A stretch of DNA of 64,000 nt from Candidatus Omnitrophota bacterium (GTDB taxonomy: Bacteria > Omnitrophota > Omnitrophia > Omnitrophales > Aquincolibacteriaceae). Position 1 is the stretch's first letter. Each line of letters opens with the position of its first letter. Positions 38,631 to 57,577 of the stretch are shown here, piece after piece. The position numbers and the translations under genes were made by a program. The DNA lies in contig JAKLFP010000001.1 of NCBI GenBank assembly GCA_022711115.1, forward strand, positions 261,183-325,182. The letters are read 5' to 3'. Below the pieces are notes generated by a model that was given only the letters and a program-made list of their open reading frames with translations, did not search any database and was not told the origin of the DNA.

Positions 38631-39257
38631 CTACTTTTTAAATTGGAACGTTTTCAGGACATGCTCAAATACTGGCGTATAGTTGTCATACTGAGATCCT
38701 ATCGTTTCGAGCATTAACTCGTACAAACGACCCTTGCTTGTCAAATAAACTCGTATCCCTTTCAGCATAACCGGAGGGGCTTTCTCGCTAAACAGCGGAA
38801 AGGATTCATATTCATAAAGAGCCGAAACCGCTTTTTCCCCACCCACTTCTCGGGCTCCTTTATGGAGTACTTTAAATTTGGGTAGATTGGAATCCATTTT
38901 TAGATAAGCCTCCAGAAGATCGGGAGCGGTTTTCCCGCTTTCCAGCGGCCTTACGGTGGCATGAATAAGCGTCGTGAATCCATTTTCCGTATGAACAGGC
39001 CCGCGGAGATACACCAGATCGTATTTCTCCGTCCCACCCGAAACCTCCACAGGCGTCCAGCCCGTTTCAGGGTATTCAAATGTAAAATTGAGGGATGAAT
39101 TTTCGGCTTTGAACTGAACGTATTTCAGCATTATTTGACTCTGGCTGATTTTTTGGGCTTCCAGGAAATAAAATGTACATGCTCCCACTGTGATGGTCAC
39201 TATTATAACACCAAAAATCAGGAAGGGTTTTTTCCAGTTTTTTTTCTGCATGCTCAT
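38631..39257 (-). CDS. membrane-anchored hypothetical protein
   Basis: N-terminal TM (LIFGVIIVTITVGACTFYF) plus a roughly 170-aa extracytoplasmic domain. Last gene of the pilin-HExxH operon. Confidence 0.5.
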   Translation of the reverse strand: MSMQKKNWKKPFLIFGVIIVTITVGACTFYFLEAQKISQSQIMLKYVQFKAENSSLNFTFEYPETGWTPVEVSGGTEKYDLVYLRGPVHTENGFTTLIHATVRPLESGKTAPDLLEAYLKMDSNLPKFKVLHKGAREVGGEKAVSALYEYESFPLFSEKAPPVMLKGIRVYLTSKGRLYELMLETIGSQYDNYTPVFEHVLKTFQFKK

Positions 39258-39278
39258 AAGGTCCTCATCCGATTTTGA

Positions 39279-40430
39279 TCAGTATTCCGGTAAATTATAT
39301 TGTGCATACCATTCGCGAACTTTAACCTTTGCCGCGGCTGAATCCTTGAGAGTGCCGTCATCATTCGCGAATGGACTCGCTTGACCATCAACGCGATCTC
39401 CTAACCCTGAGGCGTCAAAGACTTGGTTCGGAGGTTTTTTTAAATCCATCCAGATCTGGGCCGCTGTTGCAAAAGCGGTATACTCATCGTCAATGGTACC
39501 ATTAAGCGAATCCCCGGAGCGTTCATTTCCCAATAAGTCATTCGGGACACCATATTGTAATGAAGGATACGGAAAGAGTTTGTGTTTACTCCAATCATCT
39601 TGCCATACAGCATGTTTGGTTTCATGCGCCAGTACATATGCCGCCGCATATTGATTGCTTTGCAGTTCGGTGCTCAATACGATGGTACTTGGGACGGTAC
39701 CATAACAGACTCCCCAATTACCCGCTCCAGCATCACCAAACGAAACTGCTACATTATTTGAACGAATAAAATCGGCAAGGTGAGTGCCTGACACCATACC
39801 GGGGATACTCAACGCGGCTGTTGAGGTTGCTAAAATATCGAGGACCTGCTCGATGTCATCTGTATAACCATCAAAAGACGGCAAAGAAGGTGGGGGCGTC
39901 AGAACAAAATCAGGCCTCATCTCCCTCCCCCCTCCACCGCTAATAGTACCGCCCCCAAAGCCTATCCCGCCCCCACCGCTACCACTATTCCCCCCGTTTC
40001 CGCCGGAACCTGAACTCCTCCCGCCGCCGTCCGAAGAAGGATAATTGACAAAACCATCTTTATTGATCCCGAACTCCTGAAGCCAATTATTGAGAGACTC
40101 GATAGGCGTTGCTAAGGCAAGAAAATCTTCTTCGGATGCGTTAATAATCTTGTAGTTGTAGAATTTATTGCCTTCGATCAAAAGCCCCAAAGCCGACTTG
40201 ATGGCTGTTTCATCTGCTGCCGCCAAAAATTTCCCGAGCACGCCATGGATCACGTGCTCTGCGGAACGAATCGCCCCAAGGGTCCGAACCGCTTCCGTTT
40301 CCTTTGCTTTTTTAACCTGCCCGACCATGCGCGGAATAATCAAAAAAGCTACGAAGGTAATGATCGCGGCCGCGATCAATAATTCTACCAATGTGAACCC
40401 TTTTTTAAGCCGCCTGTTTTTTCTTTTCAT
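39279..40430 (-). CDS. type IV pilin-like protein fused to a DUF4157-like HExxH metallopeptidase-like domain
   Basis: Prepilin N-terminal cleavage/methylation site KGFTLVELLIAAAIITF. Gly/Ser-rich linker (SSDGGGRSSGSGGNGGNSGSGGGGIGFGGG). C-terminal domain with LAHETKHAVWQDD. Confidence 0.6.
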   Translation of the reverse strand: MKRKNRRLKKGFTLVELLIAAAIITFVAFLIIPRMVGQVKKAKETEAVRTLGAIRSAEHVIHGVLGKFLAAADETAIKSALGLLIEGNKFYNYKIINASEEDFLALATPIESLNNWLQEFGINKDGFVNYPSSDGGGRSSGSGGNGGNSGSGGGGIGFGGGTISGGGGREMRPDFVLTPPPSLPSFDGYTDDIEQVLDILATSTAALSIPGMVSGTHLADFIRSNNVAVSFGDAGAGNWGVCYGTVPSTIVLSTELQSNQYAAAYVLAHETKHAVWQDDWSKHKLFPYPSLQYGVPNDLLGNERSGDSLNGTIDDEYTAFATAAQIWMDLKKPPNQVFDASGLGDRVDGQASPFANDDGTLKDSAAAKVKVREWYAQYNLPEY

Positions 40431-41748
40431 CCTTATTCCCGCTCATGACTTCTTCCAGTATTTTTTTGTTCTGGGCTGCCTCTTTTAAATGGGGATCCAG
40501 CGCTAAAGCCTTGTCCCATTCCTTAAAAGCGTTATCGACATCGCCTAAAAAAGCATGAGCCAGTCCGGCATTGGCGTGAGCTTTGGCATAACGATCATTG
40601 ATTGAAAAAATCTTTTGAAAGACCTCGAGCGCTTTTTGAGGTTGATTTATTTTAAGATAAAAAAGGCCCATGTCGTTTTGAAGTGCAAGGTCGCTCGGAT
40701 CTTTCCTTAATAATTGTTCATAATAAGAGATTGCTTTGGCGGAGTCCTTTTTTTGGGTAAACGTTTGGGCTAATCCGTAAATTGCACCAGGATTTTGGGG
40801 GTCTTTTTCCAGAGCTTGCTGAAAGCTCATTTCGGCTCGATCCCATTCTTTTTTCCCAAAATAAAGCTGGCCAAGACCAAGTAAGGCCTGCGGATCGTTA
40901 GGATCCCGGGACAAGGCTTCTTGATACTGGATCTCGGCCTGAGCGTAATCTTTCCGCAAACGCAAGATTTCTGCTCTATGGAGATATGCCCGCGGAATGG
41001 GAGCCGGGCTCTCGATCAAACGCTCCGTAATGATCCACGCCTGATCCAATGCCCCTGCCTGGATGAATGCCGCCGCGGCATTGCAACTGGCAATGGTGTC
41101 ATTTTTCTGGCCCAATTCTTCAAATAGTTTTGCAGATGCCAAGTAATCGCCTGCCATATAAAGGCAAAAAGCGAGATTCCGTTTGAAGGTGAGTTCATGG
41201 GGCTTGAGTGTGACGAGTTTTTGATAATAAGGAATGGCTTTTTGATACTGTTTTTCGGTTTCATAAAAATGGGCGGCATTCTGAAGCAGATCGATATTGT
41301 CGGGTGTTTGTTCCAAGGCCTTTAGAAAATTCGCCTCCGCATTGGCAGGGATCTTCGCAGCGGCATAGGCACTTCCAAGGTTCGCATAAATAACCGCATT
41401 CATCGTCTGAGGACCCAACGCCTTATGAAAAGAGTCGGCGGCCTCAAGAAACTTGCCTTCCTTGTAAAGCGCAACGCCTTTGGTGAAATGGACCTGGTTG
41501 CCGGAGACCTCAAGAAACTCTGTCTGGGAACCGCGCCAGATCATTTCGACATCGCTCCGCGGGATCTTGACTTTGCCGCCTTTGGCTTCGACGGTCAAAA
41601 AATCATCTCTTTCTTTCAAGATTTTTGTTTCTATGACATTGCCGTTTTTGAGCTTGATAATCTCGGCTTTGACTGTTTGAGTGGATAAGAAAAGAGAGAA
41701 ACATAAGAGAAGAAAAAATAATTTTTGGATTTTTTGAATTTTGTTCAA
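40405..41748 (-). CDS. secreted TPR-repeat protein
   Basis: Signal peptide, then at least 8 TPR units. TTG start with GGAGAA RBS. Overlaps the pilin-like gene by 26 nt. Confidence 0.7.
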   Translation of the reverse strand: MNKIQKIQKLFFLLLCFSLFLSTQTVKAEIIKLKNGNVIETKILKERDDFLTVEAKGGKVKIPRSDVEMIWRGSQTEFLEVSGNQVHFTKGVALYKEGKFLEAADSFHKALGPQTMNAVIYANLGSAYAAAKIPANAEANFLKALEQTPDNIDLLQNAAHFYETEKQYQKAIPYYQKLVTLKPHELTFKRNLAFCLYMAGDYLASAKLFEELGQKNDTIASCNAAAAFIQAGALDQAWIITERLIESPAPIPRAYLHRAEILRLRKDYAQAEIQYQEALSRDPNDPQALLGLGQLYFGKKEWDRAEMSFQQALEKDPQNPGAIYGLAQTFTQKKDSAKAISYYEQLLRKDPSDLALQNDMGLFYLKINQPQKALEVFQKIFSINDRYAKAHANAGLAHAFLGDVDNAFKEWDKALALDPHLKEAAQNKKILEEVMSGNKDEKKKQAA

Positions 41749-41862
41749 ATGGTTCTCCGTTTCGTACGACTGTGTTGATTCAAAAAACGGGAAATCCCTG
41801 ATCGTTCCTGATCTTTTATTTCCCCGAATAAGATAGGGGAAACTTTTTTATTTATCAAGCCT

Positions 41863-43023
41863 TTAGAACTTCAACTTTTTGAAGCTTTTTGTGTCTTGGG
41901 AAGAAGGCAATAAAATCGGTGCCTCTTTCGTCAAGTACTGCGCAAGAATCGTAGAGACTAAAAAGGAACCGCCGGCATTAAAATGACAGTCATCAAAAAA
42001 AAGATCGGGATCTTTAGGTAATAACTTGGCCAGATCCACACATTCGGCCTTGAGCCCCGCGCAAACATCCAACATCGCCTGGTTATACATCGCCATCGTT
42101 TCTCGAAGAACGCTTACGGAATAATATTTTTTGCATTGGTCGCCAAAACCCGCTTCGGCCCAACCGAACCATAAGGTGTTTTTTTCTTTTTCCGTCAGAT
42201 GCTCCATCCACTTGGTGGGCTGCGTCACAAGGATCGGCCGGGCACCTCTTTGCCGAACCATGGTGACCCATAAGTACAACGCCTCTTTGTAGCTTTGCAA
42301 TTTTTCTTCCATGGGAGGCATCGCATCAACCAGAATCGCCTTTTCCCGGTCTTTTGCCCTCAAACTATAGGAAACCGGGCCTGAACCTTGATCCAATTTT
42401 CGATCCACAAAAAGCCTGTTTTTTACCACCCTATACAATTGCCATAAAGCTGTTTTTTCATAAAAAGGAACGGGCTTCACCTCTTGTTTTTGGGGTGGGG
42501 CCTCCAGCGGAATCGCCAAAGCTATGGACAGGTCGTTGATCCCGGTAAGAAGAAGGATGGCATCGATAAACGGGAACTGGTTGAGTAAAAGTTCACTGTC
42601 GCGGATGTGATCCCTGACGATCGTTCCGCTTCTGCCGACATTGCCGACCCAGATGCGGTATCCTTGCTGGTTCACGATTTTTTGTGTGAGGTACGGCCAA
42701 GCTTCTTCATTATCAAGAAACAGACATTCGGTCGTGCTGCCGCCGACCGTAAGGATGTGATAATTCTGGTAAGGTGAAAATTCATCTCCGCGAATACCTT
42801 TCGAATTGACGGAATATCTTTTTTTACCAATAGACGTTCTAAAGGTCTTTTCAAGGTGCGGCTTCAGAATATAACGATCTTCAAGAGGCTCCGTATCTTT
42901 TACAGGGGCTTTCAGAAGCATCACCTTCCCTGCGATCATTTCGCTAAGGACCAACGCAAGGGCCAATCCTCCCAAGACCAGGCAAGCTTTGATGATGCTT
43001 TCCCTAAAGAAAGAAGGTTTCAT
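41863..43023 (-). CDS. membrane-anchored SGNH/GDSL-type hydrolase or acyl-transferase (AlgX/PatB-like)
   Basis: N-terminal TM. Block I TVGGSTTEC. C-terminal DDCHFN (DxxH). Confidence 0.55.
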   Translation of the reverse strand: MKPSFFRESIIKACLVLGGLALALVLSEMIAGKVMLLKAPVKDTEPLEDRYILKPHLEKTFRTSIGKKRYSVNSKGIRGDEFSPYQNYHILTVGGSTTECLFLDNEEAWPYLTQKIVNQQGYRIWVGNVGRSGTIVRDHIRDSELLLNQFPFIDAILLLTGINDLSIALAIPLEAPPQKQEVKPVPFYEKTALWQLYRVVKNRLFVDRKLDQGSGPVSYSLRAKDREKAILVDAMPPMEEKLQSYKEALYLWVTMVRQRGARPILVTQPTKWMEHLTEKEKNTLWFGWAEAGFGDQCKKYYSVSVLRETMAMYNQAMLDVCAGLKAECVDLAKLLPKDPDLFFDDCHFNAGGSFLVSTILAQYLTKEAPILLPSSQDTKSFKKLKF

Positions 43024-43059
43024 TCAAATTCCTTTTTAGGCGAATTTTTGAAAAAATCG

Positions 43060-44331
43060 CTAACCTTTAGCATCTTTTTTCCCTGTTCCAGCGAGATCCG
43101 CCTGATAACAATCTTCCGGCAATAGTTTGAACTGCGGGCTATTGAATGTATCGATATAAGCCCGCGCCCATAAGGCATACCCTTTAGGGTTAAAGTGGGG
43201 ATCGTTCATGTAATAATAAACATCCTGCGTCGTATTCCGGATAAACGGTTCCAAAGCAGCCACGCTGTCCAGGTAAGGAACATTGTATTTTTTTGCGAGA
43301 TGTTCGATCTCCTCATGCGGCCTTTTGGACCAGACTCTTTGCTGCTGCGGTCCGGAAAAAAGGAATTGCCCATAATACGGTGTCCCGGACAATAACAGTT
43401 TCACATGGTTTGCCTGGCAAAGTTTGATGATCTTTTCCAGCATGCCCATCGTAAAAGCAACATTTCCACGGGTTTGCGCGTCCCATTCGGGCTTGCACCA
43501 CGACCAGCGGGGATAAAACTGCACCAGTCCCTTGCGAAGCACCATAGAACGCCAGTGTTCTTCCTCTTTTTCCTTGGATTGGTCCACTCTGTGAAATTTC
43601 TTCAACAGCCAGTTGTATAAATGAGAATATTGATATAAAAACAGGATCCCTCGCCGCAGCCATGTCGCCTTCACAGGCCCCTTTTCAGTATCAATGAACA
43701 ATTGATAATAAATGTTCGTCGGCGATGCGGCAAAAGGCTCTCCCTTCTTATCATAAAGCAGCTTCTGACGGTATTTCCAGTCGTCATAATCATCCGACAT
43801 ATCGACATTAACCACCACGACATCGGGCTGATATTTGAGAAGATAATATTTGATGTTGAGGTAATAAATGACCGGCGAGTAACTGACCGTCCCGGTATTG
43901 ATCACTTCAAATTGATAACCGGTTTTTTTGTATCGCTCGTTCAGGGCCTGCCCCACCAAACTCGGAACCGACTGACCCATGGGACAAGTCCCCTCCACAA
44001 AGGAATCTCCCACATAAAAAATGCGATAGATTCCTTTGGGTTTTTTAAGGGAAATGTCATGGTCTTCAACCCACCCTTGTGCGTTATAAAAATGCACGTA
44101 AGGTTTCTTAAATTCGGGGTTGCTGGATTGCCACCCGCTGACCGTGGATTTGGAATGAGGCCGCCACGCATGATTGAGCTGAAAATGCTCAAACGTGTTA
44201 TGATCCATTTGGGGAAAGAACAAAGCAAACATAAGCTCCGCAAAAAGAAAGATCGCGACCGTCACACCCATCGCGGTTAAGCCTGCTAAAAACCATGAAA
44301 AAAAATTATTATTTCTTTCCGTTATAGGCAT
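43060..44331 (-). CDS. membrane-anchored SGNH/GDSL-type hydrolase, paralogue of the neighbour
   Basis: N-terminal TM. FYVGDSFVEG (GDS block). NDPHFNPKGY (DxxH). Confidence 0.6.
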   Translation of the reverse strand: MPITERNNNFFSWFLAGLTAMGVTVAIFLFAELMFALFFPQMDHNTFEHFQLNHAWRPHSKSTVSGWQSSNPEFKKPYVHFYNAQGWVEDHDISLKKPKGIYRIFYVGDSFVEGTCPMGQSVPSLVGQALNERYKKTGYQFEVINTGTVSYSPVIYYLNIKYYLLKYQPDVVVVNVDMSDDYDDWKYRQKLLYDKKGEPFAASPTNIYYQLFIDTEKGPVKATWLRRGILFLYQYSHLYNWLLKKFHRVDQSKEKEEEHWRSMVLRKGLVQFYPRWSWCKPEWDAQTRGNVAFTMGMLEKIIKLCQANHVKLLLSGTPYYGQFLFSGPQQQRVWSKRPHEEIEHLAKKYNVPYLDSVAALEPFIRNTTQDVYYYMNDPHFNPKGYALWARAYIDTFNSPQFKLLPEDCYQADLAGTGKKDAKG

Positions 44332-44404: not shown

Positions 44405-44494
44405 TGGCGGAGAGGGGGAGATTCGAACTCCCGAACCGCTTGCGCGGTTAACAGTTTTCGAGACTGCCGCAATCGACCACTCTGCCACCTCTCC
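44405..44494 (-). tRNA. tRNA-Ser (anticodon CGA)
   Basis: Hand-folded: acceptor GGAGAGG/CCTCTCC, anticodon stem GCAGT/ACTGT with loop CTCGAAA, long variable arm CCGCGCAAGCGG, T-arm GGGAG-TTCGAAT-CTCCC, and an encoded CCA. Confidence 0.9.
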
Positions 44495-45132: not shown

Positions 45133-45753
45133 TTAAAAAAGAAACGGCAAAAGCCGCCAGCGCACTTGTTTAACGTAGGCCTGATATTCGGGATCCTGCA
45201 AAAGCATTTTTTCTTCGGCAAAAATCCGGAGAATCTGGCTAAGCAAGCACAATACGGCAACTAATCCATTATAAAGACTCGGCTGATTGATGATATAGCC
45301 TATACTGAAAATCTGATAGCTGGCATAGAGGGGATGCCGTACCCAACGGTACATCCCTCCCCGCTGGATCGCGCGATTAGCAGGAAGCATCCCAAAAGAA
45401 CGGTTAAGCGAAATAATCGCCGCGATCGTAAGCAAGCTTCCGATGATCTGCACCACAGTTGCGATCAGGCTGGTCCCGGCAGCTGTCGTTCGTATGAACA
45501 ACAGTATCGAAAAACTGCCCAAAAAAGAAGTAATAATATCCATCAAGCTCCAGGAAGTGGTCTTTGCGGCTTTACGGAAAACGGCAAAAACAAAAAAAAG
45601 AACCGCTTGTAAGATCAGAAGAGACTCGGAAATTTGCTGCCATCCTGTTAACCCCCAGACCTGCAGGCTATGCCCATAGATCCAAAAGGAAAAAAGAACT
45701 CCCCATGTGGTCCCACTTAGAATAAAACCCATTTTTTTAAATGCCGTTTGCAT
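45133..45753 (-). CDS. isoprenylcysteine carboxyl / phospholipid methyltransferase family protein
   Basis: MYRWVRHPLYASYQIFSIGYII...RIFAEEKMLLQDPEYQAY. Start at the ATG with a GGAG RBS. Confidence 0.7.
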   Translation of the reverse strand: MQTAFKKMGFILSGTTWGVLFSFWIYGHSLQVWGLTGWQQISESLLILQAVLFFVFAVFRKAAKTTSWSLMDIITSFLGSFSILLFIRTTAAGTSLIATVVQIIGSLLTIAAIISLNRSFGMLPANRAIQRGGMYRWVRHPLYASYQIFSIGYIINQPSLYNGLVAVLCLLSQILRIFAEEKMLLQDPEYQAYVKQVRWRLLPFLF

Positions 45754-45957
45754 CTTTTTCTCCTGATCCATTTCAACTCGGCATTGCCGCCCAACGGCAT
45801 GACGCTTAAAGACATTCCTTAAGACACGGCCTGTTAGACAAGCGCCGGTAGCACGCAAGAAAAACTTACACCTTGGGATTTGAAAAAAATTACAAGATCA
45901 GAAAATGTAAAAATCAGGAGGCATTTTAATTTCTGACCCCGAATTTTAAAAAAAGTT

Positions 45958-46323
45958 TCAAGACGGCTGGAGAGTATCGCCCACCTTCAGGTCGATTTTT
46001 TCAAGGCTCCCTGCGGGAAGTTCCACCACGGAGTAAGCATTCCAAACGACAGGCCCCAACCGATTGCGTTGAAAATGATGCGTGAGCTTCACAACCTGAC
46101 CTGCTTTGGTCAAATAGATCACATCAATCGCGTATCTCATCCCTAGCGAATGAATGGAATCGCATGGGACCAGCCAAAGGCCGTGTCCCGGCAACAGCTG
46201 ATCCGTAAAAAGCAACCCACGCATCCTGGAAAAAGGGGTTTTCGCAATCTTCAGGTTTTCCACAACAACTTCCCGGGTACGTGCCGTTATCAGCTTCATC
46301 GTATCCCCTTTCATCTTAAGCAT
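45958..46323 (-). CDS. DUF192 (COG1430) domain protein
   Basis: SRMRGLLF...GLWLVPCDSIHSLGMRYAIDVIYL. Its start overlaps the tadC stop. Confidence 0.6.
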   Translation of the reverse strand: MLKMKGDTMKLITARTREVVVENLKIAKTPFSRMRGLLFTDQLLPGHGLWLVPCDSIHSLGMRYAIDVIYLTKAGQVVKLTHHFQRNRLGPVVWNAYSVVELPAGSLEKIDLKVGDTLQPS

Positions 46324-47131
46324 TTTTGGCTGTATTTATTTTTTCTAAAAAAGGAATGATATTTAAAACAGAAGGCCCTATAAGCACGACAAAAATAGAC
46401 GGCATAATCAAAAAAGCGAGCGGGAATAATAATTTGATTGGTAATTTTAAGATCTTTTCACGCGTCCGAATACGAATCGTTTCCCTCAATAAAGCACTGT
46501 GATTTCTTAACGTATCGCTCAGCTTCATGCCCAGTTTTTCGGATTCAATGAGCGTAATGACAAAGGATTTTATATCCGGAACTTTGGTTCTATTGGCAAA
46601 ATTTCGAAAGGCATCTTCCGCAGGAAGCCCCACATTGATCTCGTAAAAGGTATAGCGCAATTCATTCGATAAAGGGGTTCCCTTCGTCTCTTCTGCTAAA
46701 CGGACCAGAGATGCATTGAGAGACATACCCGCCTCAAGGCAGACAACCAGAAGATCTAAAGTGGTCGGCAAGGCCTCTTCAATCAAGCGTCGATAGCGAC
46801 GGACCATATAAATTTTCAAAAAAAGTTTTAGCGATAGCCCTGCCAAAATAGCCATGAGAAGTTTTATGGCCACCGGTCCGGAAGCAGGAGCTGCTTGCTG
46901 CCACAAAATCGCAAAAAATATCGGGATACCTAAAAAAAGAAGATTTTCAATGTAGAATTTATGGGGTGAAATATGCGCGGCTTTTAAAACCTCCTCTTTA
47001 TATTGTTTCGCAGACGTCAAGATGCTTAAACGTTCCTGAAAGCGGTCTTTTTGGGCGGTGGATGTCAAAAATGACCAAACTCCCAATCCGACCGCAAGGC
47101 TAAACAACACGATCACAATCGCGAATATCAT
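46316..47131 (-). CDS. tadC: Flp pilus assembly protein TadC (T2SS-F domain)
   Basis: Polytopic GspF-like domain. Position after tadB. Confidence 0.8.
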   Translation of the reverse strand: MIFAIVIVLFSLAVGLGVWSFLTSTAQKDRFQERLSILTSAKQYKEEVLKAAHISPHKFYIENLLFLGIPIFFAILWQQAAPASGPVAIKLLMAILAGLSLKLFLKIYMVRRYRRLIEEALPTTLDLLVVCLEAGMSLNASLVRLAEETKGTPLSNELRYTFYEINVGLPAEDAFRNFANRTKVPDIKSFVITLIESEKLGMKLSDTLRNHSALLRETIRIRTREKILKLPIKLLFPLAFLIMPSIFVVLIGPSVLNIIPFLEKINTAKNA

Positions 47132-47146
47132 TTTCTCCTCTTACGC

Positions 47147-48112
47147 TTAAAAGGGAATTCTCAAATTGACCATTTTCTTTACGATCAAGGCCCCCATCAC
47201 CATCATCACCAGCGCAATCGTAACAAGATTGCGTCCGACTTCATTTTCAAACAAGGGCTTTAAATAACCCGGATTTAATAGGTTCAGGATCAAGGCAACA
47301 ACAAACGGTGCCGTAGAAATAATCCAACCGCTTAGCCGCGCCTGAGCTGTTAAAGCTTTCAGCTCCTTGCGCATGACCACACGCGCTGTGATGGTGGCTT
47401 CCAATTTGCTCATGAGTTCTGAAAGATTTCCGCCGGACTCCTGCTGGATGGCAACTCCGACCACAAAGGTTTTGGTGTCTTTGCTTCTTATTCGCTTGTA
47501 AAGCCCCGCAAGCGCATGCGCCATACTTTCTCCCATTTGCAGTTCGCCTACCACCGTTTGAAATTCTTTATTGATCGGATAGGGAGCATCATGGGAAACT
47601 CTTTCAAACGCGCTGGAGATACCAAGGCCAATCCCCACCGCCCCCCGTATGATCTGCAAAGCCATGGGAAAATGCTGGTCGAAAAGATCGACATATCTCG
47701 CATAACGATAGGTCAGAATACCGCTTGGCACAAAAAAAAGCGCCAGTGCCGCCGCGGGAACGGCAATGATATTGGGGATATGCGCTCTAACCAAAATAAG
47801 ATATAAGAACAAAGCTCCGATGAGCGAAATGAGCACAAAAACGCTCACCGAAATGCCCCATCCGCTAGCCTTAAGCATGAGATTAATCTTCGAGAAAAAA
47901 GCCTGTCGCAATAGAATTGCATTCAGTGCGCGTATGTCACTGTATTGGTGTTTCTTTTCAACCTCAAGATGCCCTTTCTTTTTTTTCTCTTCAACTTGTC
48001 CTTCAAAACGCTTTTGCAGAAAGGCCGCATCTCCCGCTGTTTTATCCAACAGGAAAAAAGTAATAAAAAAAACGGATCCGGCCAACAGCGCGGCTAAAAT
48101 AATAAATATCAT
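47147..48112 (-). CDS. tadB: Flp pilus assembly protein TadB (T2SS-F domain)
   Basis: GspF-like membrane domain downstream of cpaF. Confidence 0.8.
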   Translation of the reverse strand: MIFIILAALLAGSVFFITFFLLDKTAGDAAFLQKRFEGQVEEKKKKGHLEVEKKHQYSDIRALNAILLRQAFFSKINLMLKASGWGISVSVFVLISLIGALFLYLILVRAHIPNIIAVPAAALALFFVPSGILTYRYARYVDLFDQHFPMALQIIRGAVGIGLGISSAFERVSHDAPYPINKEFQTVVGELQMGESMAHALAGLYKRIRSKDTKTFVVGVAIQQESGGNLSELMSKLEATITARVVMRKELKALTAQARLSGWIISTAPFVVALILNLLNPGYLKPLFENEVGRNLVTIALVMMVMGALIVKKMVNLRIPF

Positions 48113-48124
48113 GAGGGTCTCGTT

Positions 48125-49441
48125 TTAAAGTGGTTTCAAAATTCGGCTTAAAAATTTTGGTCTTACTGGGGAGAAAACAAACTGACCGATCACCCTTCCT
48201 TTTTCATCAACCCCCTTTTCCTCGAATTGCATCACATCCTGAAGGCTGACGACGTCTCCTTCCATCCCCACGACCTCTGAGATCGATGAAATTTTCCTAG
48301 TTCCATCGGAATAACGTTTGATCTGGATCAAAAGATGCAATGCCGAAGCAATCTGGCGGATAATCGATAAATGAGTCAGATTGGCATTTCCAAGCAGCAC
48401 CATCGTTTCAATACGGCTCAATGCATCCCTTGGCGTATTGGCATGAACGGTGGTGAGCGAACCCTCATGCCCCGTATTCATCGCCTGCAACATATCCAAC
48501 GCCTCTTCGCCACGGCATTCGCCGATAATAATGCGGTCAGGACGCATACGTAGCGCATTGCGCAACAAATCCCGCTGGGAAACCCGCCCTTTGCCTTCCA
48601 CATTCGCGGGACGTGTTTCCAGACGGACCACATGCTGCTGCTGCAGTTGAAGCTCGGCAGCATCCTCAATGGTAATAATACGTTCTGTGTTCGAGATATG
48701 TGCCGAAAGGACATTTAAAAGGGTTGTTTTTCCCGTTCCTGTACCCCCGGAGATCAAAACATTTAATTTGCTTTCGACAGCGAGTTTGAGACACTCCGCC
48801 ACTTTATCATTCAGCGACCCGAGATGGAGAAGATCCTGAACCTTAAGAGGATCCTTTTTGAAACGACGGATGGAAAGCACGGGACCGTTCAGTGCCAGGG
48901 GTGGAATGATCGCATTGACACGTGATCCATCCGCAAGCCGTGCGTCAACCATGGGCGATGCCTCATCCACACGCCGTCCCACCGCCGCCACGATACGGTT
49001 AATGACATGCCTCAAATGCGTGTCATCCTTGAAGGTAATACCTGTCAGGATCAATTTCCCACGCTCTTCAACATAGACCTGTTTGTAACCATTGACCAGT
49101 ATTTCATCGATGGAAGATTTTGCCAGCAGAGGTTCAAGAGGCCCGAGGCCAAAGGTTTCATTTACGATTTCCTTGATAAGATCAGCTTGCTGGTAAGCAT
49201 TCAGGGCGACCTTTTCTTCTCCCACGATTTTTTTTACAAGCTCCGCAACCTGGTCACGCGCGTCATTGGCCGGAAGTTTATTGATCGCTTCAAGATCCAG
49301 ACGTTCAATGAGCTTCTGATGCAAGCGGAATTTCAGATTGTGGAAAAAAATATTTTGCCCTATTTCCCCGACGATTGGCTGAAAACCGGAAGCGCTTTCG
49401 CTGTGGGCGGATATTTGCTTTAGCCGGTCCGCGAGACTCAT
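48125..49441 (-). CDS. cpaF: Flp pilus assembly secretion ATPase CpaF/TadA
   Basis: [15 protein letters not shown] Walker A, Asp box, Walker B, His box (VirB11/GspE family). Confidence 0.95.
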
Positions 49442-50646
49442 GGATGGATCACCTTCTTAAGCGCTTGTTTGAATCCCAAAAACATCCGCATGTCTTTTTT
49501 TTCGGATTGGAAATCAGCTTCAATCTTTTTTGCGAAGTCTTTAAACTGAGCATTCAAAGGAGATCCGTGCGCGGCGTTAATAATCGCCTGTCCCATATTG
49601 ACGCTTTGACATGCGCCGGCATAGTCATTGCTGAAAAAGTGCGCGAAATTATACCTCAAAATTTCTTTTGCCTTGGACAGGTTGATGGCTTCGTATTTGG
49701 AGCTATAACGATTGATAATGATTTTTATCTTTTCAGGTGAGTATTTCAACTGCTCAAGAAATTCAAGGCACCGTGAAGCGCTTCTCAAGGAAATAAGTTC
49801 CAAGGTGCTTGTGATGAAGATATGGCACGAATTATCAATAATGGAAATCAACTGGTCGGTCAGACGGTAACCTCCGTCGATAAAAATATAATCAAAATAA
49901 ACCATAAAAGCATCGAGCATCTTTTCAATGATCGGGGATGTCAATTGTTCGATGTCTTCAATTCTTGCGGGCGCCGGTAAAATGGAAATCCCGTGTTCGG
50001 TCGGCGGCAAAACCCCGCGCAAATATTTATCATCAACACGGTCAATATTGTGAGAAATATCCATTAAAGAAAACTCGGGTTTGTAATTTAGAAAGAAGGG
50101 GATGTCACCCGCCTGAAGCGCCATGTCCCATAGCAGAACCCGCTTTTTGGTAAGTTTCGCTACGCTGATGGCAGTATTGACAGTGACAAAAGTGTTCCCC
50201 ACACCGCCTTTAAAATTAAGGAAGGTGTATACCTTCCCCAGTTTCCTCGAACTTTGCGGCGTCCCGCTCCGTCGAAACCGCTGTATCACTTTCAGGATTT
50301 CTTTTTCCTGAACCGGAAGTTCGATAAAATCCCGCATCCCGTACTTCACGAACTGAAGCGCATGAGGTTTAAGCTCGGGGGTCAGGATTCCCACAAGAGG
50401 AACGATATCACCCACCTTTTCCAGTTTGGAAATCAAATGCTGTAGCTCTTCATCGGAAAACGATCCGAAATCCACCAGGATCAACTGAGGGCCGTAGCGT
50501 AAAAACATTTCCTCTGTGGTTATTTTAAGCGGGCACAGGTCGAGTTTGCAACCGGATTCCGGATGTTTCCGGAAAAACTCTTCAAGGGTTTGCGCGTTTT
50601 TATAATCATTTGAAAAAATAATGGCGTTGATTTTCTGTACTTCCAT
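49438..50646 (-). CDS. cpaE: CpaE/TadZ-like pilus localisation ATPase
   Basis: N-terminal receiver-like domain plus a ParA/MinD-like domain with the deviant Walker A FLNFKGGVGNTFVT. Confidence 0.8.
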   Translation of the reverse strand: MEVQKINAIIFSNDYKNAQTLEEFFRKHPESGCKLDLCPLKITTEEMFLRYGPQLILVDFGSFSDEELQHLISKLEKVGDIVPLVGILTPELKPHALQFVKYGMRDFIELPVQEKEILKVIQRFRRSGTPQSSRKLGKVYTFLNFKGGVGNTFVTVNTAISVAKLTKKRVLLWDMALQAGDIPFFLNYKPEFSLMDISHNIDRVDDKYLRGVLPPTEHGISILPAPARIEDIEQLTSPIIEKMLDAFMVYFDYIFIDGGYRLTDQLISIIDNSCHIFITSTLELISLRSASRCLEFLEQLKYSPEKIKIIINRYSSKYEAINLSKAKEILRYNFAHFFSNDYAGACQSVNMGQAIINAAHGSPLNAQFKDFAKKIEADFQSEKKDMRMFLGFKQALKKVIHP

Positions 50647-50668
50647 AATTTCTCCTATGCTTGCTTTT

Positions 50669-52273
50669 TTAGCCTACAAGCGAGAATGGAACGAATAAAC
50701 TTATTTCATCGAAAATCTTCTGCAACGCGGCTTGAATTTTCGCAATATTGTTGGTGTCTTTAATATGATAATGCTCCTCAAGCCCCGAATATTGCGCGAT
50801 CAGGTCAAACAGCAGCTTCGTTGTCTTCTGCTGTTGTGTTGATCCGCCAAGATCCCCGAAAGTGATCGGGTAAACACGGATATTCTGTTCGATCGCCTTC
50901 GTTGCCTGCGCAAGGGTATAATTCCGGGCTAACGCCAATTCCGCCGCCGTTGCTTCCGATCCAAAACATTCGACTGCGCCACCGGGTGTTTTGGGTGCGC
51001 AGTTAGGCAATCCGTCCGTAAACACAATAATGACCGAAATGCTTCTCGAGGAAGTAGCGCTGCTGGTAATACCGCCGGCCGCGGTAAGGATCGCATCTCC
51101 GATATTGGTGTTTCCGTGGGGAATCGCAATAGGGCCGAGAAATTGTTCTATCGCCGGATCATAAGCTGCTGTGCCGTTATACTTATAGACAGGATTGGTG
51201 ACAACGGTCGCATCAGGAAGAGTAATAGGATCGGCCCGAATAAGGTTATGATAAAGCTCGCTATTGTTGAAAAGCGGCGTAAAAACGTTGTTTATATTGT
51301 CCTCCGTGACCGGGATCAGCGCAGGCCCCGACAATTTTTGGGTAACATGGCTTGCAAAATAATAAACCCCCGCCATATCCCCCAGATCACTCTCAGCGAT
51401 CAAGCCTTCCAAAAAATCAAGCGATGAATTCAGAACCACTTGTAAAGGCTGCGGGTATAAGGGAGGATTCGGTGCCGGAGCTAAAGGGCTAAAAAGCATC
51501 GGAAAGGACGTGCTAAAAGTCGGACGGCTGATAAAACTCTCCGTCTGCGGCCACACAGGATTGGGGGCGGTTATTTTGCCTGTACCATCCATCGTGGTCG
51601 TTCGAGGATAGCTGATATCATCCATGGAACCGGAATTGTCGATGACGAGCGCGAAATTGCGCGGGCTGAGCGAAGAAACGGAATTACGCGAAAAAGAAAG
51701 GCTTGCCACCCCGCAAATGTTCCCGAAAAAAGTCTGCACAGCGCCCCCTCCCATGCGAGTGACATGCACACGAAACGCCGTAATATCATGCAGCCCGATG
51801 CCTCCGCCCAGTAAATCTGCTGTCCGATCCGTAAACAACAGATTATGGGGATGGCCCGGCTTTTCATGGTAGGGATTCGTGTTGGTTAAATCAAACGTAC
51901 CGAATTGAAGCGAGATGGTCATGTCGGGATTATTACTAAGAACCTTGCTTTTGGCCATGACAGCCTCAGTGGTATCTTGCGTTCTCTTTCTGATTTTTTT
52001 GATGACGGTGAGATCACTTAGATTCTGCCCCGCTTTGGCCGCAGCGCGCATCTCGGTAAGAAAACTGGCCGCGGCAGTTAAGGCTCCCGAATCCGCTATG
52101 GATTTTAATTCCGTGGAAACGACCATGACGGCAGAGAGATCCACAGCAAGGGCCGCAAGCCCCAGTGCCGCCACCATCATCGCAATGCTATAAACCAAAA
52201 GCATTCCTTTAGCATTCTTTAAAACAAAAAATAATCTAGATATCGTAGAAATTGATCCTGTTTTGCGTTTCAT
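50669..52273 (-). CDS. TadG-like pilus-associated protein with vWA domain
   Basis: TadE/G-like N-terminal hydrophobic segment (LLVYSIAMMVAALGLAALAVDLS). vWA MIDAS motif VIDNSGSMDD. Confidence 0.65.
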   Translation of the reverse strand: MKRKTGSISTISRLFFVLKNAKGMLLVYSIAMMVAALGLAALAVDLSAVMVVSTELKSIADSGALTAAASFLTEMRAAAKAGQNLSDLTVIKKIRKRTQDTTEAVMAKSKVLSNNPDMTISLQFGTFDLTNTNPYHEKPGHPHNLLFTDRTADLLGGGIGLHDITAFRVHVTRMGGGAVQTFFGNICGVASLSFSRNSVSSLSPRNFALVIDNSGSMDDISYPRTTTMDGTGKITAPNPVWPQTESFISRPTFSTSFPMLFSPLAPAPNPPLYPQPLQVVLNSSLDFLEGLIAESDLGDMAGVYYFASHVTQKLSGPALIPVTEDNINNVFTPLFNNSELYHNLIRADPITLPDATVVTNPVYKYNGTAAYDPAIEQFLGPIAIPHGNTNIGDAILTAAGGITSSATSSRSISVIIVFTDGLPNCAPKTPGGAVECFGSEATAAELALARNYTLAQATKAIEQNIRVYPITFGDLGGSTQQQKTTKLLFDLIAQYSGLEEHYHIKDTNNIAKIQAALQKIFDEISLFVPFSLVG

Positions 52274-54158
52274 TGCCTGTGCCCTGCCCTTCCCCAACAA
52301 CCTCTTTTTGGATTCTTTCCTTGGCCTTCTTGGCCTTTTCTTTCTCCAGCTCTTCAGCTTTCCTGGCCTCTTTTTTCTTTCGTTCTTCGGTTTTCTTAAT
52401 CTCTTTCTTTGCCCGTTCTTCGGCTTTCTTAACCTCTTTCTTGGCGCGTTCTTCTGCTTTTTTGGCTTCTTTCGCCGCCTTTGCCGCGGCTTTTTTATCT
52501 TTTTCCGTTAAACGTCTGGCATCCTTATCCTCAAATTCCTTTGCCAGCGCTTTCTTGTAAGCGAGTGCGTCCGCTTTTTCAGCAGCCTTCCTGTCACGTA
52601 ATTCCTGCTGGGCTTTCAGATATTCCTGGCGCAATTCATCACGTTTGATTGTGCGGTCCGAAATACCTAATCCGGATTTGCGTTCATTTTCATAACGCGT
52701 GAGATATTCTTCCATAGCCAATGCCTTTGCGATCTCGAAGGGCGGCTCCGGAATTTCATTCATAGTAAACAACGGGTCCTCTCTCTTTAGGTCTCTGAGA
52801 TCAAAACTTTCCTTTTGGAGATCCACGATATGCGGCGTAATAAAGATCACCAGCTCAACGCTCGCGTGTTCGCTCGATTTGCTTGAGAAAAGCTTGCCGA
52901 GCAAAGGAATCTTCCGAAAACCGGGCACTCCGGAATCTGTATTGGTATTTCGATCCGCAATAATTCCGCCGATCACAAACGTTGTATCGTTATTGATTTC
53001 AACTACCGTATTGGCCTTCCGGCTGGTAATCGCGGGAATATTAAACCCGTTAGCGATAATACCATTCGCCTGGTCCAGTTCGCTGATCTCGGTTTGAAGA
53101 TCAAAACGGATCCTGTTGTTGTCTAAAATAGAGGGCGTATAAGTCAGCTTGGTACCGTATTCTTTATAAGTGACGTCCGTGGTATTGGAAGTCACCTGCG
53201 GGATAGGAAATTCTCCTCCGACAAGGAGATGGGCTTTGGAGCCATCCCGAACAAGAATATTCGGCTTGGCCAAAACTTTAACCCAACTTTCATTCTCAAG
53301 TAATCTGACGACCGCACCGCCCCACCAATTTTTGCTGTGATAGGAGCCCGTCCAAGTGGTTTTCGTGCCATCCTCCGGAAGAGCTAGAACAATATCTTGA
53401 TGATCGTCAGAAACCTTAGACATGACAGGCCCTAATCCACCGGGCATGAATGTCATCCCGAATTTTTCAGCAAGATACGCACCGTCAATGCTGAACTCAT
53501 TGTCCTTGGAGCGACTGATCTCAATGACCCGGATTTCCAAGAGGATCTGCTTTGCTTCATTGACTGTCACGATGCTAGCGCTGTCTTTGGAAAAGGCTTG
53601 CGACGTTTCCGCGATCTGTTTTTGCATCTCCACGGTATCGACATTGCCGCGGACCACATAACCTTTTTCGGTCGGAAAAACATCCACCTTGTTCTGCGGG
53701 GCGATCTTTGCCAAAGCCTCTTTCAAAACGGTCGGATCGCCAACGGAGGTCACATTGTACACATAGATGTCCCCGGCCTTGTCCCAAACCAGAAGGTTGG
53801 CCGCGCCTTTTGTTTTAGTGGAGATCAAGACCTCCTGCTTATTAACGACTGCGACATCTGCGACATCGGGTGCGGAAATGGCCACACGGCCCACTTCCCG
53901 GTTGAAATGAATCACATGGCTGTTCCCGCTGATGATCTGCAGGTCGCTCTTGCCGACAACTTTATTTTCACTCCACGCAGGTTCTTCGACAGCAGCCGGA
54001 AGGGACTGGGTTTCCTTGTTCTTTGAAAAAGCATCGGACGAAGGACCGGAAACCGGGACATTCTGAGGCGCGTCAGGAACGACTGCCACGCAAATCCCTG
54101 TAAAAGCGAAATTGGCGATAAGTAGAAAGATTCCAAACTTTTTAAGTAAAGTCTTCAT
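52236..54158 (-). CDS. rcpA: Flp pilus secretin RcpA/CpaC with a Lys/Glu/Ala-rich C-terminal extension
   Basis: Signal peptide, BON-like N-domains, secretin core (VVEINNDTTFVIGGII...PLLGKLFS). C-terminal KKAEERAKKE-type repeats. Confidence 0.9.
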   Translation of the reverse strand: MKTLLKKFGIFLLIANFAFTGICVAVVPDAPQNVPVSGPSSDAFSKNKETQSLPAAVEEPAWSENKVVGKSDLQIISGNSHVIHFNREVGRVAISAPDVADVAVVNKQEVLISTKTKGAANLLVWDKAGDIYVYNVTSVGDPTVLKEALAKIAPQNKVDVFPTEKGYVVRGNVDTVEMQKQIAETSQAFSKDSASIVTVNEAKQILLEIRVIEISRSKDNEFSIDGAYLAEKFGMTFMPGGLGPVMSKVSDDHQDIVLALPEDGTKTTWTGSYHSKNWWGGAVVRLLENESWVKVLAKPNILVRDGSKAHLLVGGEFPIPQVTSNTTDVTYKEYGTKLTYTPSILDNNRIRFDLQTEISELDQANGIIANGFNIPAITSRKANTVVEINNDTTFVIGGIIADRNTNTDSGVPGFRKIPLLGKLFSSKSSEHASVELVIFITPHIVDLQKESFDLRDLKREDPLFTMNEIPEPPFEIAKALAMEEYLTRYENERKSGLGISDRTIKRDELRQEYLKAQQELRDRKAAEKADALAYKKALAKEFEDKDARRLTEKDKKAAAKAAKEAKKAEERAKKEVKKAEERAKKEIKKTEERKKKEARKAEELEKEKAKKAKERIQKEVVGEGQGTGNETQNRINFYDI

Positions 54159-54928
54159 ACCTTCACCTTTTCCTTCTTAACTCCGCGATAAAGTTCGATC
54201 TCTGTTTGCTCCGGAAGTATGGGAATGATGGATGTTTGTTTCGTACCGACAATTTCATCAAGGCGCATGTAGGTGTCTTTCACGTCGCGCTCGGAAAACG
54301 GCCGTATACTGATGTCCAATTTGCCCTTTTTCATGGCATAGGCCATGATTTCCGCGCCTTCGGGCGTCACCGCCAGAGTCACAGTGACGGTTGAACCTCC
54401 TGGCATCCCTCCCGCCTGGGCCCCTGCTTGTTTCATCGGAGCCGCTTTCATCACCAGTATGTTTTTCATAATGGTCTTTGTCTCAAATTCCTTGGCGGAG
54501 GTATCCGTAAAAACAACATCCACACGTCTGCCAAATTTGAGGAGCCTCAGGGCGTCTTCTGAAATAGGCAAGCTTACCGTGGTCGCACGATAACCTTCGG
54601 GAATCATATTGGCAATATTGTCTGTTTCGTCCGCGAGATCAAAGCTCCTGATAACATTCCCCCGTTGAACGGCATTGCGAAGATTTTGTCCCACCACCGG
54701 CGCCAACTCCGTAAAGGCAGTGCTCAACTCTGTCCCTTTCGGCATCAACAGCAAACTGACATCGGTCTTTCCGATCGTATCCCCGATATCCAGATCCCGA
54801 ACGGCTGTCGCCACAAGAATGGCTTTAGGATCTTTTTTCAACTCGTTGAAGACATGGAAAATAACTCCCAGTGTCAGCAGGGCACATAGTACCGAAAGAA
54901 AAAAAATGGATCTTGAAGATAGTCTCAT
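54155..54928 (-). CDS. cpaB: Flp pilus assembly protein CpaB/RcpC
   Basis: N-terminal TM plus a SAF domain (AVRDLDIGDTIGKTDV). ATG chosen as start; the track uses a TTG two codons upstream. Confidence 0.85.
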   Translation of the reverse strand: MRLSSRSIFFLSVLCALLTLGVIFHVFNELKKDPKAILVATAVRDLDIGDTIGKTDVSLLLMPKGTELSTAFTELAPVVGQNLRNAVQRGNVIRSFDLADETDNIANMIPEGYRATTVSLPISEDALRLLKFGRRVDVVFTDTSAKEFETKTIMKNILVMKAAPMKQAGAQAGGMPGGSTVTVTLAVTPEGAEIMAYAMKKGKLDISIRPFSERDVKDTYMRLDEIVGTKQTSIIPILPEQTEIELYRGVKKEKVKV

Positions 54929-54977
54929 AGGCAACCTCTACGGTGCTCAAAGTGTTCAGGGGTTTGATGAATAAAAC

Positions 54978-56699: not shown

Positions 56700-56725
56700 T
56701 TTATTCTACCTCTCATTCTCAAATT

Positions 56726-57304
56726 TTAGTCGAGCGAAGGCGCCGGCATGGGTTGGGGAAGAGGTGCAACAGAAGCCACAAACTGGGGCATGGTAATTGT
56801 CGAAGTGATCTGTCTCGCCGCCAAAGTCGGTATTAAGGAACCCCTCCCCAGAACATTACTAACCATTTGAGACACCGTTATAGTAACGAGTTTTGTGCTC
56901 TCTCCACCCTGCTTTTGCGCTGGTATAGTGCTCGTGCTGATCGTAATGGTGGGAGCGTTAGCTCCCGTCAAACCCATATTGGTCAAAATCTGGTTCATAC
57001 ATCCCAAGATGTAGGCATTGCCACCCGCTCCTTCGGGATTTTTGGTCATACTGGCAATGCGGGCCCCTTCCCGTGCCACCTGCGTCATCTCATGCAGTCT
57101 AAAGATTACCTGCGATAAATCAAAAATCCCCGCAAACATGAGGATATACATCGTGCTGCACACGAGGAGTTCCACAAGAACTTGACCGCGTGTATGATTT
57201 TTTTTCCTTCTTATAAGCACCTCTTTGACTGCCCCATTATTTTTTTCCATCTCCCCCACTAAGCCGTCTGAAATTTTACAGCAACGGCGTCCTTCCCCTC
57301 TCAT
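56726..57304 (-). CDS. TadE/TadF-like pseudopilin
   Basis: HTRGQVLVELLVCSTMYILMFAGIFDLSQV TadE-like N-terminal segment. The start is uncertain (alternative ATG at 57250). Confidence 0.65.
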   Translation of the reverse strand: MRGEGRRCCKISDGLVGEMEKNNGAVKEVLIRRKKNHTRGQVLVELLVCSTMYILMFAGIFDLSQVIFRLHEMTQVAREGARIASMTKNPEGAGGNAYILGCMNQILTNMGLTGANAPTITISTSTIPAQKQGGESTKLVTITVSQMVSNVLGRGSLIPTLAARQITSTITMPQFVASVAPLPQPMPAPSLD

Positions 57305-57427
57305 TGCGAAACACCCTCACCATGGTGTCTAAGCCTTCCTCACCTCTTGATGAGGAAGGCTTGTCGCTTTGGCAACCGTTTCAACGATCACCCCACCATG
57401 TTAAGCGACAAAAAACAACCGCGTTTT

Positions 57428-57577
57428 TTAAAAAGTCGCGGCAAGCCAGGTCGAAAGCCAGTTAAACGCAGCAGTAATTTGACCCGAAAACGCTGTTACT
57501 GCAACGATCACGACCACCGCAACCAACCCGATGATCAATAAATATTCAACTAACCCTTGCCCCTTTTGATTCTTCAT
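57428..57577 (-). CDS. flp: Flp family type IVb pilin (49 aa, not in the ORF track)
   Basis: MKNQKGQGLVEYLLIIGLVAVVVIVAVTAFSGQITAAFNWLSTWLAATF. Canonical G/xxxxEY prepilin processing motif plus a hydrophobic stem. GGGGGA RBS. Confidence 0.8.
   Translation of the reverse strand: MKNQKGQGLVEYLLIIGLVAVVVIVAVTAFSGQITAAFNWLSTWLAATF

Follow-up and report, generated by a model that had tools for sequence, protein, structure and literature searches.

The window described here is the whole 64,000-nt stretch of contig JAKLFP010000001.1, and the element of interest is a gene in it that encodes a type IV pilin fused to a putative zinc-metallopeptidase domain. Five co-directional open reading frames (ORFs) were called on the window between positions 38631 and 44331, all on the minus strand; their strand and coordinates agree with those in an initial annotation of the same DNA. 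In the direction of transcription, the first two are SGNH-1 (43060-44331, 423 amino acids (aa)) and SGNH-2 (41863-43023, 386 aa), each with a Lipase_GDSL_2 domain. These are followed by a gene for a secreted or periplasmic tetratricopeptide repeat (TPR) protein (40405-41748, 447 aa; TPR_2 match at 1.3e-40 plus related families), by the gene for the modular type IV pilin with its predicted C-terminal zincin domain (39279-40430, 383 aa plus the stop codon; hereafter “pilin-zincin”), and by a gene for a membrane-anchored PsbP-like protein (38631-39257, 208 aa). The contigs that carry related loci are labelled Candidatus Omnitrophota.

The N-terminus of pilin-zincin reads MKRKNRRLKKG followed by FTLVELLIAAAII, with Gly at -1, Phe at +1, Glu at +5 and a hydrophobic stretch next. 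The leader occupies residues 1-11 (40398..40430, minus strand). The pilin module occupies residues 12-128 (40047..40397, minus strand) and comprises a hydrophobic alpha1-N segment with the Glu at +5, a long alpha1 and a small four-stranded beta head. By sequence and by profiles, the junction of MKRKNRRLKKG with FTLVELLIAAAIITFVAFLII has the features of the class III signal peptide of type IV pilins: Pfam N_methyl (PF07963) scored 26.7 bits against a cutoff of 21.2 over residues 6-30, and the NCBIfam profile IV_pilin_GFxxxE (TIGR02532) scored 20.5 bits against a cutoff of 16.3 over residues 9-30. A full-length AlphaFold model was built on an 18-sequence alignment (predicted local distance difference test score (pLDDT) 77.8). 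The pilin part of this model has the lollipop fold, in which the alpha1 helix (14-65) is packed on four strands (91-128). When the full-length model was compared with the PDB in Foldseek, the top matches were type IV pilins, with T. thermophilus PilA4 (6xxd) at a probability of 1.0 and a TM-score of 0.63; further matches to the pilin part were PilV, PilE and a Shewanella pilin (entries 5v23, 4noa and 4d40). The type IV prepilin leader claimed in the initial annotation is thus genuine. Because the leader is canonical and the fold matches those of type IV pilins, a generic transmembrane (TM) anchor, which the same annotation had named as the case against itself, is ruled out. Identity as a Flp/Tad pilin or a TadE/F pseudopilin was also considered and was rejected; the leader is GFTLVE, of the type IVa/type II secretion system (T2SS) type, and not G/xxxxEY.

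A search among 5.8 billion proteins returned 18 homologues of the full protein. The prepilin leader, the Gly/Ser linker and the C-terminal domain are kept in every orthologue whose N-terminus is intact. Retention of the leader, which the initial annotation had proposed as a check, therefore holds within the Omnitrophota orthologue group and fails across the wider family of the C-terminal domain. Among the orthologues, the mean pairwise identity is 62% for the pilin module and 33% for the zincin domain. That the carrier is far more conserved than its cargo would make sense if the pilin module has to be compatible with an assembly machine.

The pilin module and the C-terminal domain are joined, as had been proposed, by a flexible Gly/Ser-rich linker (residues 129-180; 39891..40046, minus strand). 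It is ca. 50 residues long and is predicted to be disordered in the full-length model, where the pLDDT is <50 over residues 129-180. A Gly/Ser-rich run of 19-42 residues is found in all orthologues. About half of the Omnitrophota orthologues (P0008-P0011, P0013-P0017 and the protein at 3454-4989 of contig L019) have an extra FN3-like domain of ca. 100 residues between the linker and the zincin domain. Its pattern is PTNVT.T.NDGWL...YxVYR...CYQV, and an FN3-type Pfam match, a weak one, was obtained for one relative only.

The C-terminal domain (residues 181-383; 39282..39890, minus strand) contains an HExxH motif (H269-E270-T-K-H273; 39612..39626, minus strand) that is invariant in alignments A1, A2, A4 and A5 and is spanned by LAHETKHAVWQDD, residues 267-279 of the protein. 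H269, E270 and H273 are invariant in the 18 orthologues. In an alignment of 130 sequences of diverse relatives, the only invariant columns are these three and E316 (39483..39485, minus strand), the glutamate of an (S/T)IDxEY motif and the candidate third zinc ligand. This invariance, in the orthologues and in the diverse relatives alike, means that the HExxH is not a chance motif. The other motifs of the family are (N/D)SIDQEY around E316 and LPEY at the C-terminus. A second model, of residues 175-383, was made from a deep alignment (pLDDT 88.9, predicted TM-score 0.88). Along with two helices and a sheet of three strands, it has a long helix that bears the HExxH motif (86-111 of this model) and a second long helix that bears E316 (139-156). 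The mixed beta-sheet that precedes the active-site helix in the zincin fold is thus present, and E316, located on the helix after the active-site helix, may act as the third zinc ligand. The domain is accordingly best described as a predicted zincin with gluzincin-type ligands and with no close characterised relative, and its peptidase activity is putative. The central proposal of the initial annotation, in which a prepilin carries a putative metallopeptidase domain on a Gly/Ser linker, is supported by the profiles, the models and the invariant residues. The family ends in a conserved LPEY tail (39282-39293, minus strand), and Y375 is invariant (alignments A1-A5). By analogy to the zymogens of minigluzincins, this tail might lie in the active-site cleft.

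The affinity to DUF4157 that had been suggested for this domain was not borne out. DUF4157/eCIS_core (PF13699) scored 13.3 bits (E = 0.098), short of its 22-bit cutoff, and none of the 130 relatives matched it at E <= 0.01; the assignment was rejected. The likeness is confined to a short motif around the HExxH (xLAHExxHxxQ). Both are zincin-like, but the window protein is not a member of that family. A YgjP-like profile scored 12.7 bits for the window protein. The Pfam scan covered all 130 aligned relatives of the C-terminal domain and yielded matches to N_methyl (51 sequences), DUF6782 (22), ComP_DUS (14), SprT-like (7), T2SSG (6), WXG100 (4), MPTase-PolyVal (3), M48 (3) and Tox-MPTase4 (2, weak), with 0 for DUF4157. 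Over the zincin region, the significant matches of the relatives are to metallopeptidase families exclusively. The nearest Pfam family is DUF6782 (PF20573; best E 1.4e-8), whose matches span about the first 100 of the 241 profile positions, are centred on the HExxH and take in the sheet and the active-site-helix region. DUF6782 (gathering cutoff 27 bits) gave no match whatever for the window protein, its C-terminal domain or the Omnitrophota orthologues; since only distant relatives match, the link is transitive and at the level of the superfamily. DUF6782 is itself uncharacterised, and no mention of it was found in the literature searched.

A PDB sequence search with the domain profile gave nothing significant (snapalysin at E 0.5, selecase at E 1.5). 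For the C-terminal part of the full-length model, Foldseek against the PDB gave weak zincin matches only, and the viral structures in BFVD gave only weak matches to IrrE, SprT and M48. The gluzincins and minigluzincins are among the closest known proteins, i.e. the thermolysin-like clan, M48, M35 deuterolysin, proabylysin/projannalysin and the botulinum light chains. The C-terminal domain is therefore taken to define a new zincin family (HExxH...SIDQEY...LPEY) on a known type of carrier, the modular pilins, with putative activity and presumed display.

The family was then viewed through its carriers. With the profile of the C-terminal domain, 204 cluster representatives were collected at E <= 1e-3 from a library of 1.84 billion proteins clustered at 50% identity, and carrier classes were assigned by a rule-based reading of the N-termini of 161 sequences, many of which are fragments. 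Type IV pilin-type N-termini were found in ca. 70 of the 161, and about half of the cluster representatives are assigned to this class. Leaders of the Flp/TadE type (G-x4-E-Y/F plus a hydrophobic helix) were found in ca. 19 (ca. 12%), and at least 4 (e.g. P0138, P0154 and P0060) begin with WXG100, a carrier of the type VII secretion system. Several others have plain signal peptides, and a conserved coiled-coil N-terminus of unknown type is found in P0052, P0061, P0088, P0102, P0131, P0144 and P0150. Because its carriers are so diverse (pilins, Flp/TadE, WXG100, signal peptides), the domain behaves as a secreted effector; to judge by these architectures, it behaves as an exported module that was grafted repeatedly onto filament subunits. 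A search of contig proteins with a diverse C-terminal profile gave 11 matches, on short contigs. One short metagenomic contig (L017, 29-3311) has at least four consecutive genes with class III-type leaders, the last of which carries the zincin domain. The leaders are Flp/TadE-like (KKAQSLIEY..., KAQATLEV..., NKAQSLIEL... and KGQSTLEL...), and an incomplete upstream gene has the same post-helix VYVKRGLQG motif. This arrangement looks like a minor-pilin cluster that ends in an enzyme-bearing subunit.

Pilin-zincin is accompanied by two conserved partners. The last 26 nt of the TPR gene overlap the start of the pilin gene, and its product has about eight TPR repeats and a Sec-type signal peptide; the secreted TPR protein of the initial annotation, co-directional with the pilin gene and overlapping it, is thus confirmed. 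A small domain of ca. 60 residues, conserved in the orthologues, follows the TPR signal peptide; it has a weak match to the NCBIfam profile Lepto_7_Nterm (LA_0442/LA_0875; 36.4 bits against a cutoff of 43). The PsbP-like gene begins 21 nt after the pilin-zincin stop and encodes a protein with a single N-terminal TM segment. This 208-aa protein scored 19.6 bits against PsbP (cutoff 23.5; E = 1e-3), and six of its nine orthologues matched PsbP_2 (best E 4.4e-7); matches to DcrB were weak. A search of the PDB with the PsbP-like profile gave nothing significant, and EagT6/PA0094, at E of ca. 1, were not counted as evidence. The family is small, with only 16 homologues, all of ca. 200-210 aa.

In nine distinct syntenic Omnitrophota loci, the gene order is (CHASE2-GGDEF), (GIY-YIG), tRNA-Ser(CGA), TPR, pilin-zincin, PsbP-like, dnaX and recR. 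The TPR gene is located directly upstream of the pilin gene, usually overlapping it, in all nine. Since housekeeping genes are included, this synteny alone is weak evidence of linkage. Independent support comes from two divergent homologues in unrelated contexts. In contig L014, a TPR gene (288 aa), pilin-zincin and a 203-aa gene are flanked by riboflavin and PEMT genes; in L016, pilin-zincin and a 205-aa gene lie beside succinyl-CoA ligase, and there is no TPR gene. The downstream proteins of L014 and L016 match the profile of the 208-aa family at 76 and 196 bits, respectively, and the PsbP-like gene is thus found directly downstream of pilin-zincin in three independent genomic contexts. In a reciprocal test, two PsbP-like homologues were examined, and each is preceded by a large gene at the pilin-zincin position; this gene was identified as pilin-zincin by translation in L019, and by gene size and order only in the other contig. 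Because the linkage holds in unrelated contexts and reciprocally, the robust unit is pilin-zincin together with the membrane-anchored PsbP-like protein, with the TPR protein in front of them in most cases. The neighbourhoods thus bear out that pilin-zincin has conserved companions in the TPR protein and in the membrane-anchored protein encoded downstream.

The two SGNH genes do not belong to this unit. Their domains are real: Lipase_GDSL_2 (PF13472) scored 45.3 bits for SGNH-1 and 36.3 bits for SGNH-2 against a cutoff of 32.9, both proteins have an N-terminal hydrophobic anchor, and block I and the D-x-x-H block can be read in both (VGDSFVEG...NDPHF and VGGSTTEC...DDCHF). Of the initial description as two paralogous membrane-anchored SGNH enzymes, the domains and anchors stand and the paralogy does not; in BLASTP the two match at E = 0.1, and they have only superfamily motifs in common, so that a paralogous origin was rejected. 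No SGNH genes were found in any of 13 related loci; all nine syntenic Omnitrophota loci lack them, as do L014, L016, L019 and the P0179 contig. In relatives where both are visible, tRNA-Ser(CGA) ends 0-300 nt before the TPR gene, and in most relatives the interval is empty. In the window, this tRNA gene (44405-44494, minus strand; ARAGORN and Rfam) is separated from the TPR gene by exactly the SGNH pair (41863-44331). In L011, the same tRNA-Ser/TPR junction is occupied by an element of 5.7 kb (921-6700) that includes a tyrosine integrase gene, and an integrase abuts the tRNA-Ser gene in L019 (924-2114). From these comparisons, the tRNA-Ser(CGA) gene is read as the original upstream limit of the cassette and as a hotspot of local integration. 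No convincing att-like direct repeats were found flanking the SGNH pair, and its reading as an islet accordingly draws on comparative gene order alone. The pair is best regarded as an unrelated accessory insertion whose members are neighbours outside the conserved cassette. The proposal that the SGNH enzymes are functional partners that modify polysaccharide O-acyl groups found no support, given their absence at all related loci and their position at the variable tRNA-Ser junction.

A filament machine that could display the pilin was sought in the window, as had been suggested. No genes for PilD, PilB/C/Q, the type IVa pilus (T4aP) or the T2SS (Gsp) were found in the 64 kb; as filament machinery, the window holds solely a complete Tad/Flp pilus locus (46316-57577, minus strand) that encodes TadC, TadB, CpaF, TadZ/CpaE, a TadG-like VWA protein, a secretin, RcpC, two TadE-like proteins and its own Flp pilin (57428-57577, minus strand; 49 aa, KGQGLVEYLLI). 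No A24 prepilin peptidase gene was seen with this locus. In relatives, neither the Tad locus nor the DUF192 and ICMT-like genes occur in the stretch from the GGDEF gene to tRNA-Ser. As a display machine for pilin-zincin, the Tad locus was rejected as the default: it uses another class of leader, it encodes a Flp pilin of its own, and relatives lack it next to the pilin-zincin gene. Most T4aP components are reported to be common in most Omnitrophota classes, Tad systems are common in the phylum too, and such systems have been linked to a predatory, parasitic or symbiotic lifestyle (Seymour et al., PMC10066038). Given that T4aP are so common in Omnitrophota, it is plausible that another part of the genome encodes a matching machine.

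The remaining surroundings of the cassette in the window are, downstream and on the same strand, dnaX and recR and, upstream, tRNA-Ser(CGA), GIY-YIG, ICMT-like and DUF192 genes, the complete Tad locus, a CHASE2-GGDEF gene and a class II ribonucleotide reductase gene. The CHASE2-GGDEF diguanylate cyclase (58129-59901, minus strand) is an upstream neighbour of the cassette region that is kept in relatives L001, L003, L005 and L009, and in one relative a response-regulator gene is located directly before the TPR gene. Control of the cassette by cyclic di-GMP may be hinted at by the CHASE2-GGDEF neighbour. Genes for PEMT/ICMT-family membrane methyltransferases also occur near the cassette, at 45133-45858 (minus strand) and 20184-20927 (plus strand) in the window, and one adjoins the TPR/pilin-zincin/PsbP-like cassette in the unrelated context L014 (5216-5938). 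This may be a coincidence, or it may reflect a link to prenyl or lipid modification.

Several known systems resemble parts of this arrangement. Modular pilins that present functional modules are established, and peptidase modules of families S74 and M26 have been predicted among them from InterPro architectures (Raynaud et al. 2021, PMC8179133). The PilB protein of Streptococcus sanguinis, with its vWA module, and the IPR012902-S74 and IPR012902-M26 architectures follow the same carrier/effector logic as pilin-zincin, for which presentation on a filament is likewise predicted. The initial annotation had called a pseudopilin with a metallopeptidase unusual; modular pilins with predicted peptidases had already been described (PMC8179133), and the zincin module found here has no database signature. 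Because it lacks a Pfam/InterPro signature, this module would be missed by the census in that paper. It also differs from the described modular pilins in its linker, which comprises ca. 50 disordered residues rather than a short loop, in its occurrence on Flp/TadE-type subunits as well, and in the conserved two-gene entourage (TPR and PsbP-like).

A second parallel is provided by secreted enzymes with dedicated chaperones. The Acinetobacter T2SS metallopeptidase CpaA needs the TM-anchored chaperone CpaB, which is encoded 22 bp downstream (PMC4713064). In CpaA/CpaB, as here, the gene for the enzyme lies ca. 20 nt or less ahead of a gene whose product combines a single N-terminal TM helix with a periplasmic domain; the Lif/LipB foldases belong to the same class of dedicated chaperones. 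CpaA is a free T2SS substrate, whereas the putative peptidase here is fused to a pilin; the partner here is PsbP-like (Mog1/PsbP) and not an SRPBCC or Lif protein, and a chaperone role is suggested by analogy. The metallopeptidases of polymorphic toxins are similar in that the same domain is found behind WXG100 and other trafficking N-termini, diverges fast and is followed by a small downstream gene. Unlike these toxins, the domain gives no Tox-MPTase match over the cutoff, and the Omnitrophota genes are single-copy and syntenic, without cassette swapping; an immunity role for the PsbP-like protein would be putative.

The explanation that we favour, with modest confidence, is a modular type IV pilin that tethers a zincin, is displayed on a filament and is served by dedicated TPR and PsbP-like accessory factors. 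Sec would insert pilin-zincin into the inner membrane, and the 11-residue leader would be cut off by a prepilin peptidase of the PilD type, whose gene would lie in another part of the genome. The pilin module could then join a type IV filament (a T4aP or a pseudopilus like that of the T2SS), probably at its tip or close to it. In this way the tethered enzyme would cross the outer membrane and be kept in contact with anything that the pilus meets. Plausible targets would be the envelope or the surface proteins of host or prey cells, or those of the biofilm matrix. The TPR protein, which is translationally coupled to pilin-zincin, and the PsbP-like protein would act as the dedicated accessory factors in the periplasm. 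By analogy to CpaA/CpaB, the PsbP-like protein would most likely serve in the periplasm as a chaperone, an inhibitor or both, so that the zincin remains competent for export but inactive up to the time of assembly.

Several points weigh against this explanation. Everything past the domain identities (enzymatic activity, localisation and processing) is what we infer from the sequence. For the window protein, no peptidase Pfam family scored over the threshold, and the connection to DUF6782 is transitive. The PsbP-like fold is unlike those of the known T2SS chaperones (SRPBCC, Lif), and the chaperone role is a guess. In related genomes the synteny is largely with the housekeeping genes dnaX and recR; the TPR gene is absent from L016, and the independent support for linkage is limited to the L014 and L016 contexts. 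The window is also without PilD, T4aP or T2SS genes, and its lone filament system, Tad, uses another type of leader.

Two rivals overlap with the favoured explanation. A periplasmic protease that is anchored in the inner membrane, with the pilin head as its anchor or as a subunit of a short pseudopilus and with housekeeping of the envelope or of pilus biogenesis, alongside the TPR and PsbP-like proteins, as its task, would suit the predicted periplasmic or membrane-anchored location of both partner proteins, the lack of matching filament machinery nearby and the stable synteny of a cassette that sits mostly amid housekeeping genes (dnaX, recR, nusA, infB). A mere anchor, however, would not need a complete pilin head that is conserved at 62% identity. 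Long flexible tethers and FN3-like inserts are typical of surface-exposed proteins, and relatives of the domain on Flp-type subunits, WXG100 proteins and signal peptides point to an exported effector; this rival is thus considered unlikely, though it is the most credible of those weighed. The other possibility is an effector-immunity pair, in which the zincin is a toxin delivered by the pilus to neighbouring or prey cells and the PsbP-like protein confers immunity in the periplasm. The use of several trafficking modules (WXG100, pilins) recalls polymorphic toxins, two relatives have weak Tox-MPTase4 matches, the small downstream gene stays with the effector gene across contexts, and the cargo domain diverges quickly (33% identity). 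But sightings of the PsbP-like partner are confined to the Omnitrophota clade, whose neighbourhoods were the ones surveyed, the gene is a single chromosomal copy in a housekeeping neighbourhood without orphan immunity arrays or swapping of C-terminal cassettes, and all orthologues keep the same domain. These observations make a toxin-immunity pair somewhat less credible still than the anchored protease.

Third in credibility is the idea that the HExxH domain is not a peptidase at all, but another metal-dependent enzyme (e.g. an HExxH oxygenase like ChlH) or a non-catalytic adhesin module. Nearly all other structural neighbours of the domain, and all of its Pfam neighbours, are peptidases. The Glu of the HExxH and the downstream gluzincin-type Glu are invariant in 130 sequences, which argues for catalysis over binding, and an extracellular oxygenase, which would depend on oxygen and a co-substrate, would be implausible in a largely anaerobic lineage. 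This alternative is accordingly quite improbable. The original model of a five-gene operon, with a DUF4157-type peptidase on a pseudopilin and two SGNH O-acyl enzymes that act on polysaccharide, is the least credible of all and is hardly to be entertained. In its favour, all five genes point the same way and lie close together, the SGNH domains are genuine, and a terminator scan, which is not decisive for operon boundaries, found no minus-strand terminator between them. Yet the DUF4157 score is below the cutoff and the match is missing in relatives, the SGNH genes are absent from related loci and lie at the tRNA-Ser hotspot, and a promoter scan gave a promoter-like site, as weak evidence, within the 114 nt just ahead of the TPR gene.

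Most of what is known of modular pilins concerns adhesins, and to our knowledge enzymatic pilin modules have so far only been predicted from database signatures. New here are a zincin family without such a signature, comprising ca. 200 clusters at 50% identity, the fact that it recurs on type IV pilin-type as well as Flp/Tad-type subunits, the long tether and the faithfully linked PsbP-like partner. More speculatively, the zincin family as a whole may prefer filament subunits as carriers, with pili serving as reach-out devices for the delivery of a protease whose loading is controlled by a PsbP-like inhibitor-chaperone and a TPR adaptor. If this tentative reading were true, the tethered protease would serve to break through or reshape the surfaces of host or prey cells, in Omnitrophota and in other largely uncultured bacteria, and the mode of delivery would be distinct from both classical T2SS secretion and adhesin-type modular pilins. 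The zincin family, as defined by HExxH...SIDQEY...LPEY, can be used for annotation, and a false lead has been removed by the recognition of the SGNH genes as an islet at a tRNA hotspot. If the enzyme is displayed on pili, catalysis at a distance would be added to the functions of type IV filaments, and there would be a testable molecular tool with which the ultra-small Omnitrophota, which are suspected predators or parasites and have not been grown alone, might attack or attach to cells.

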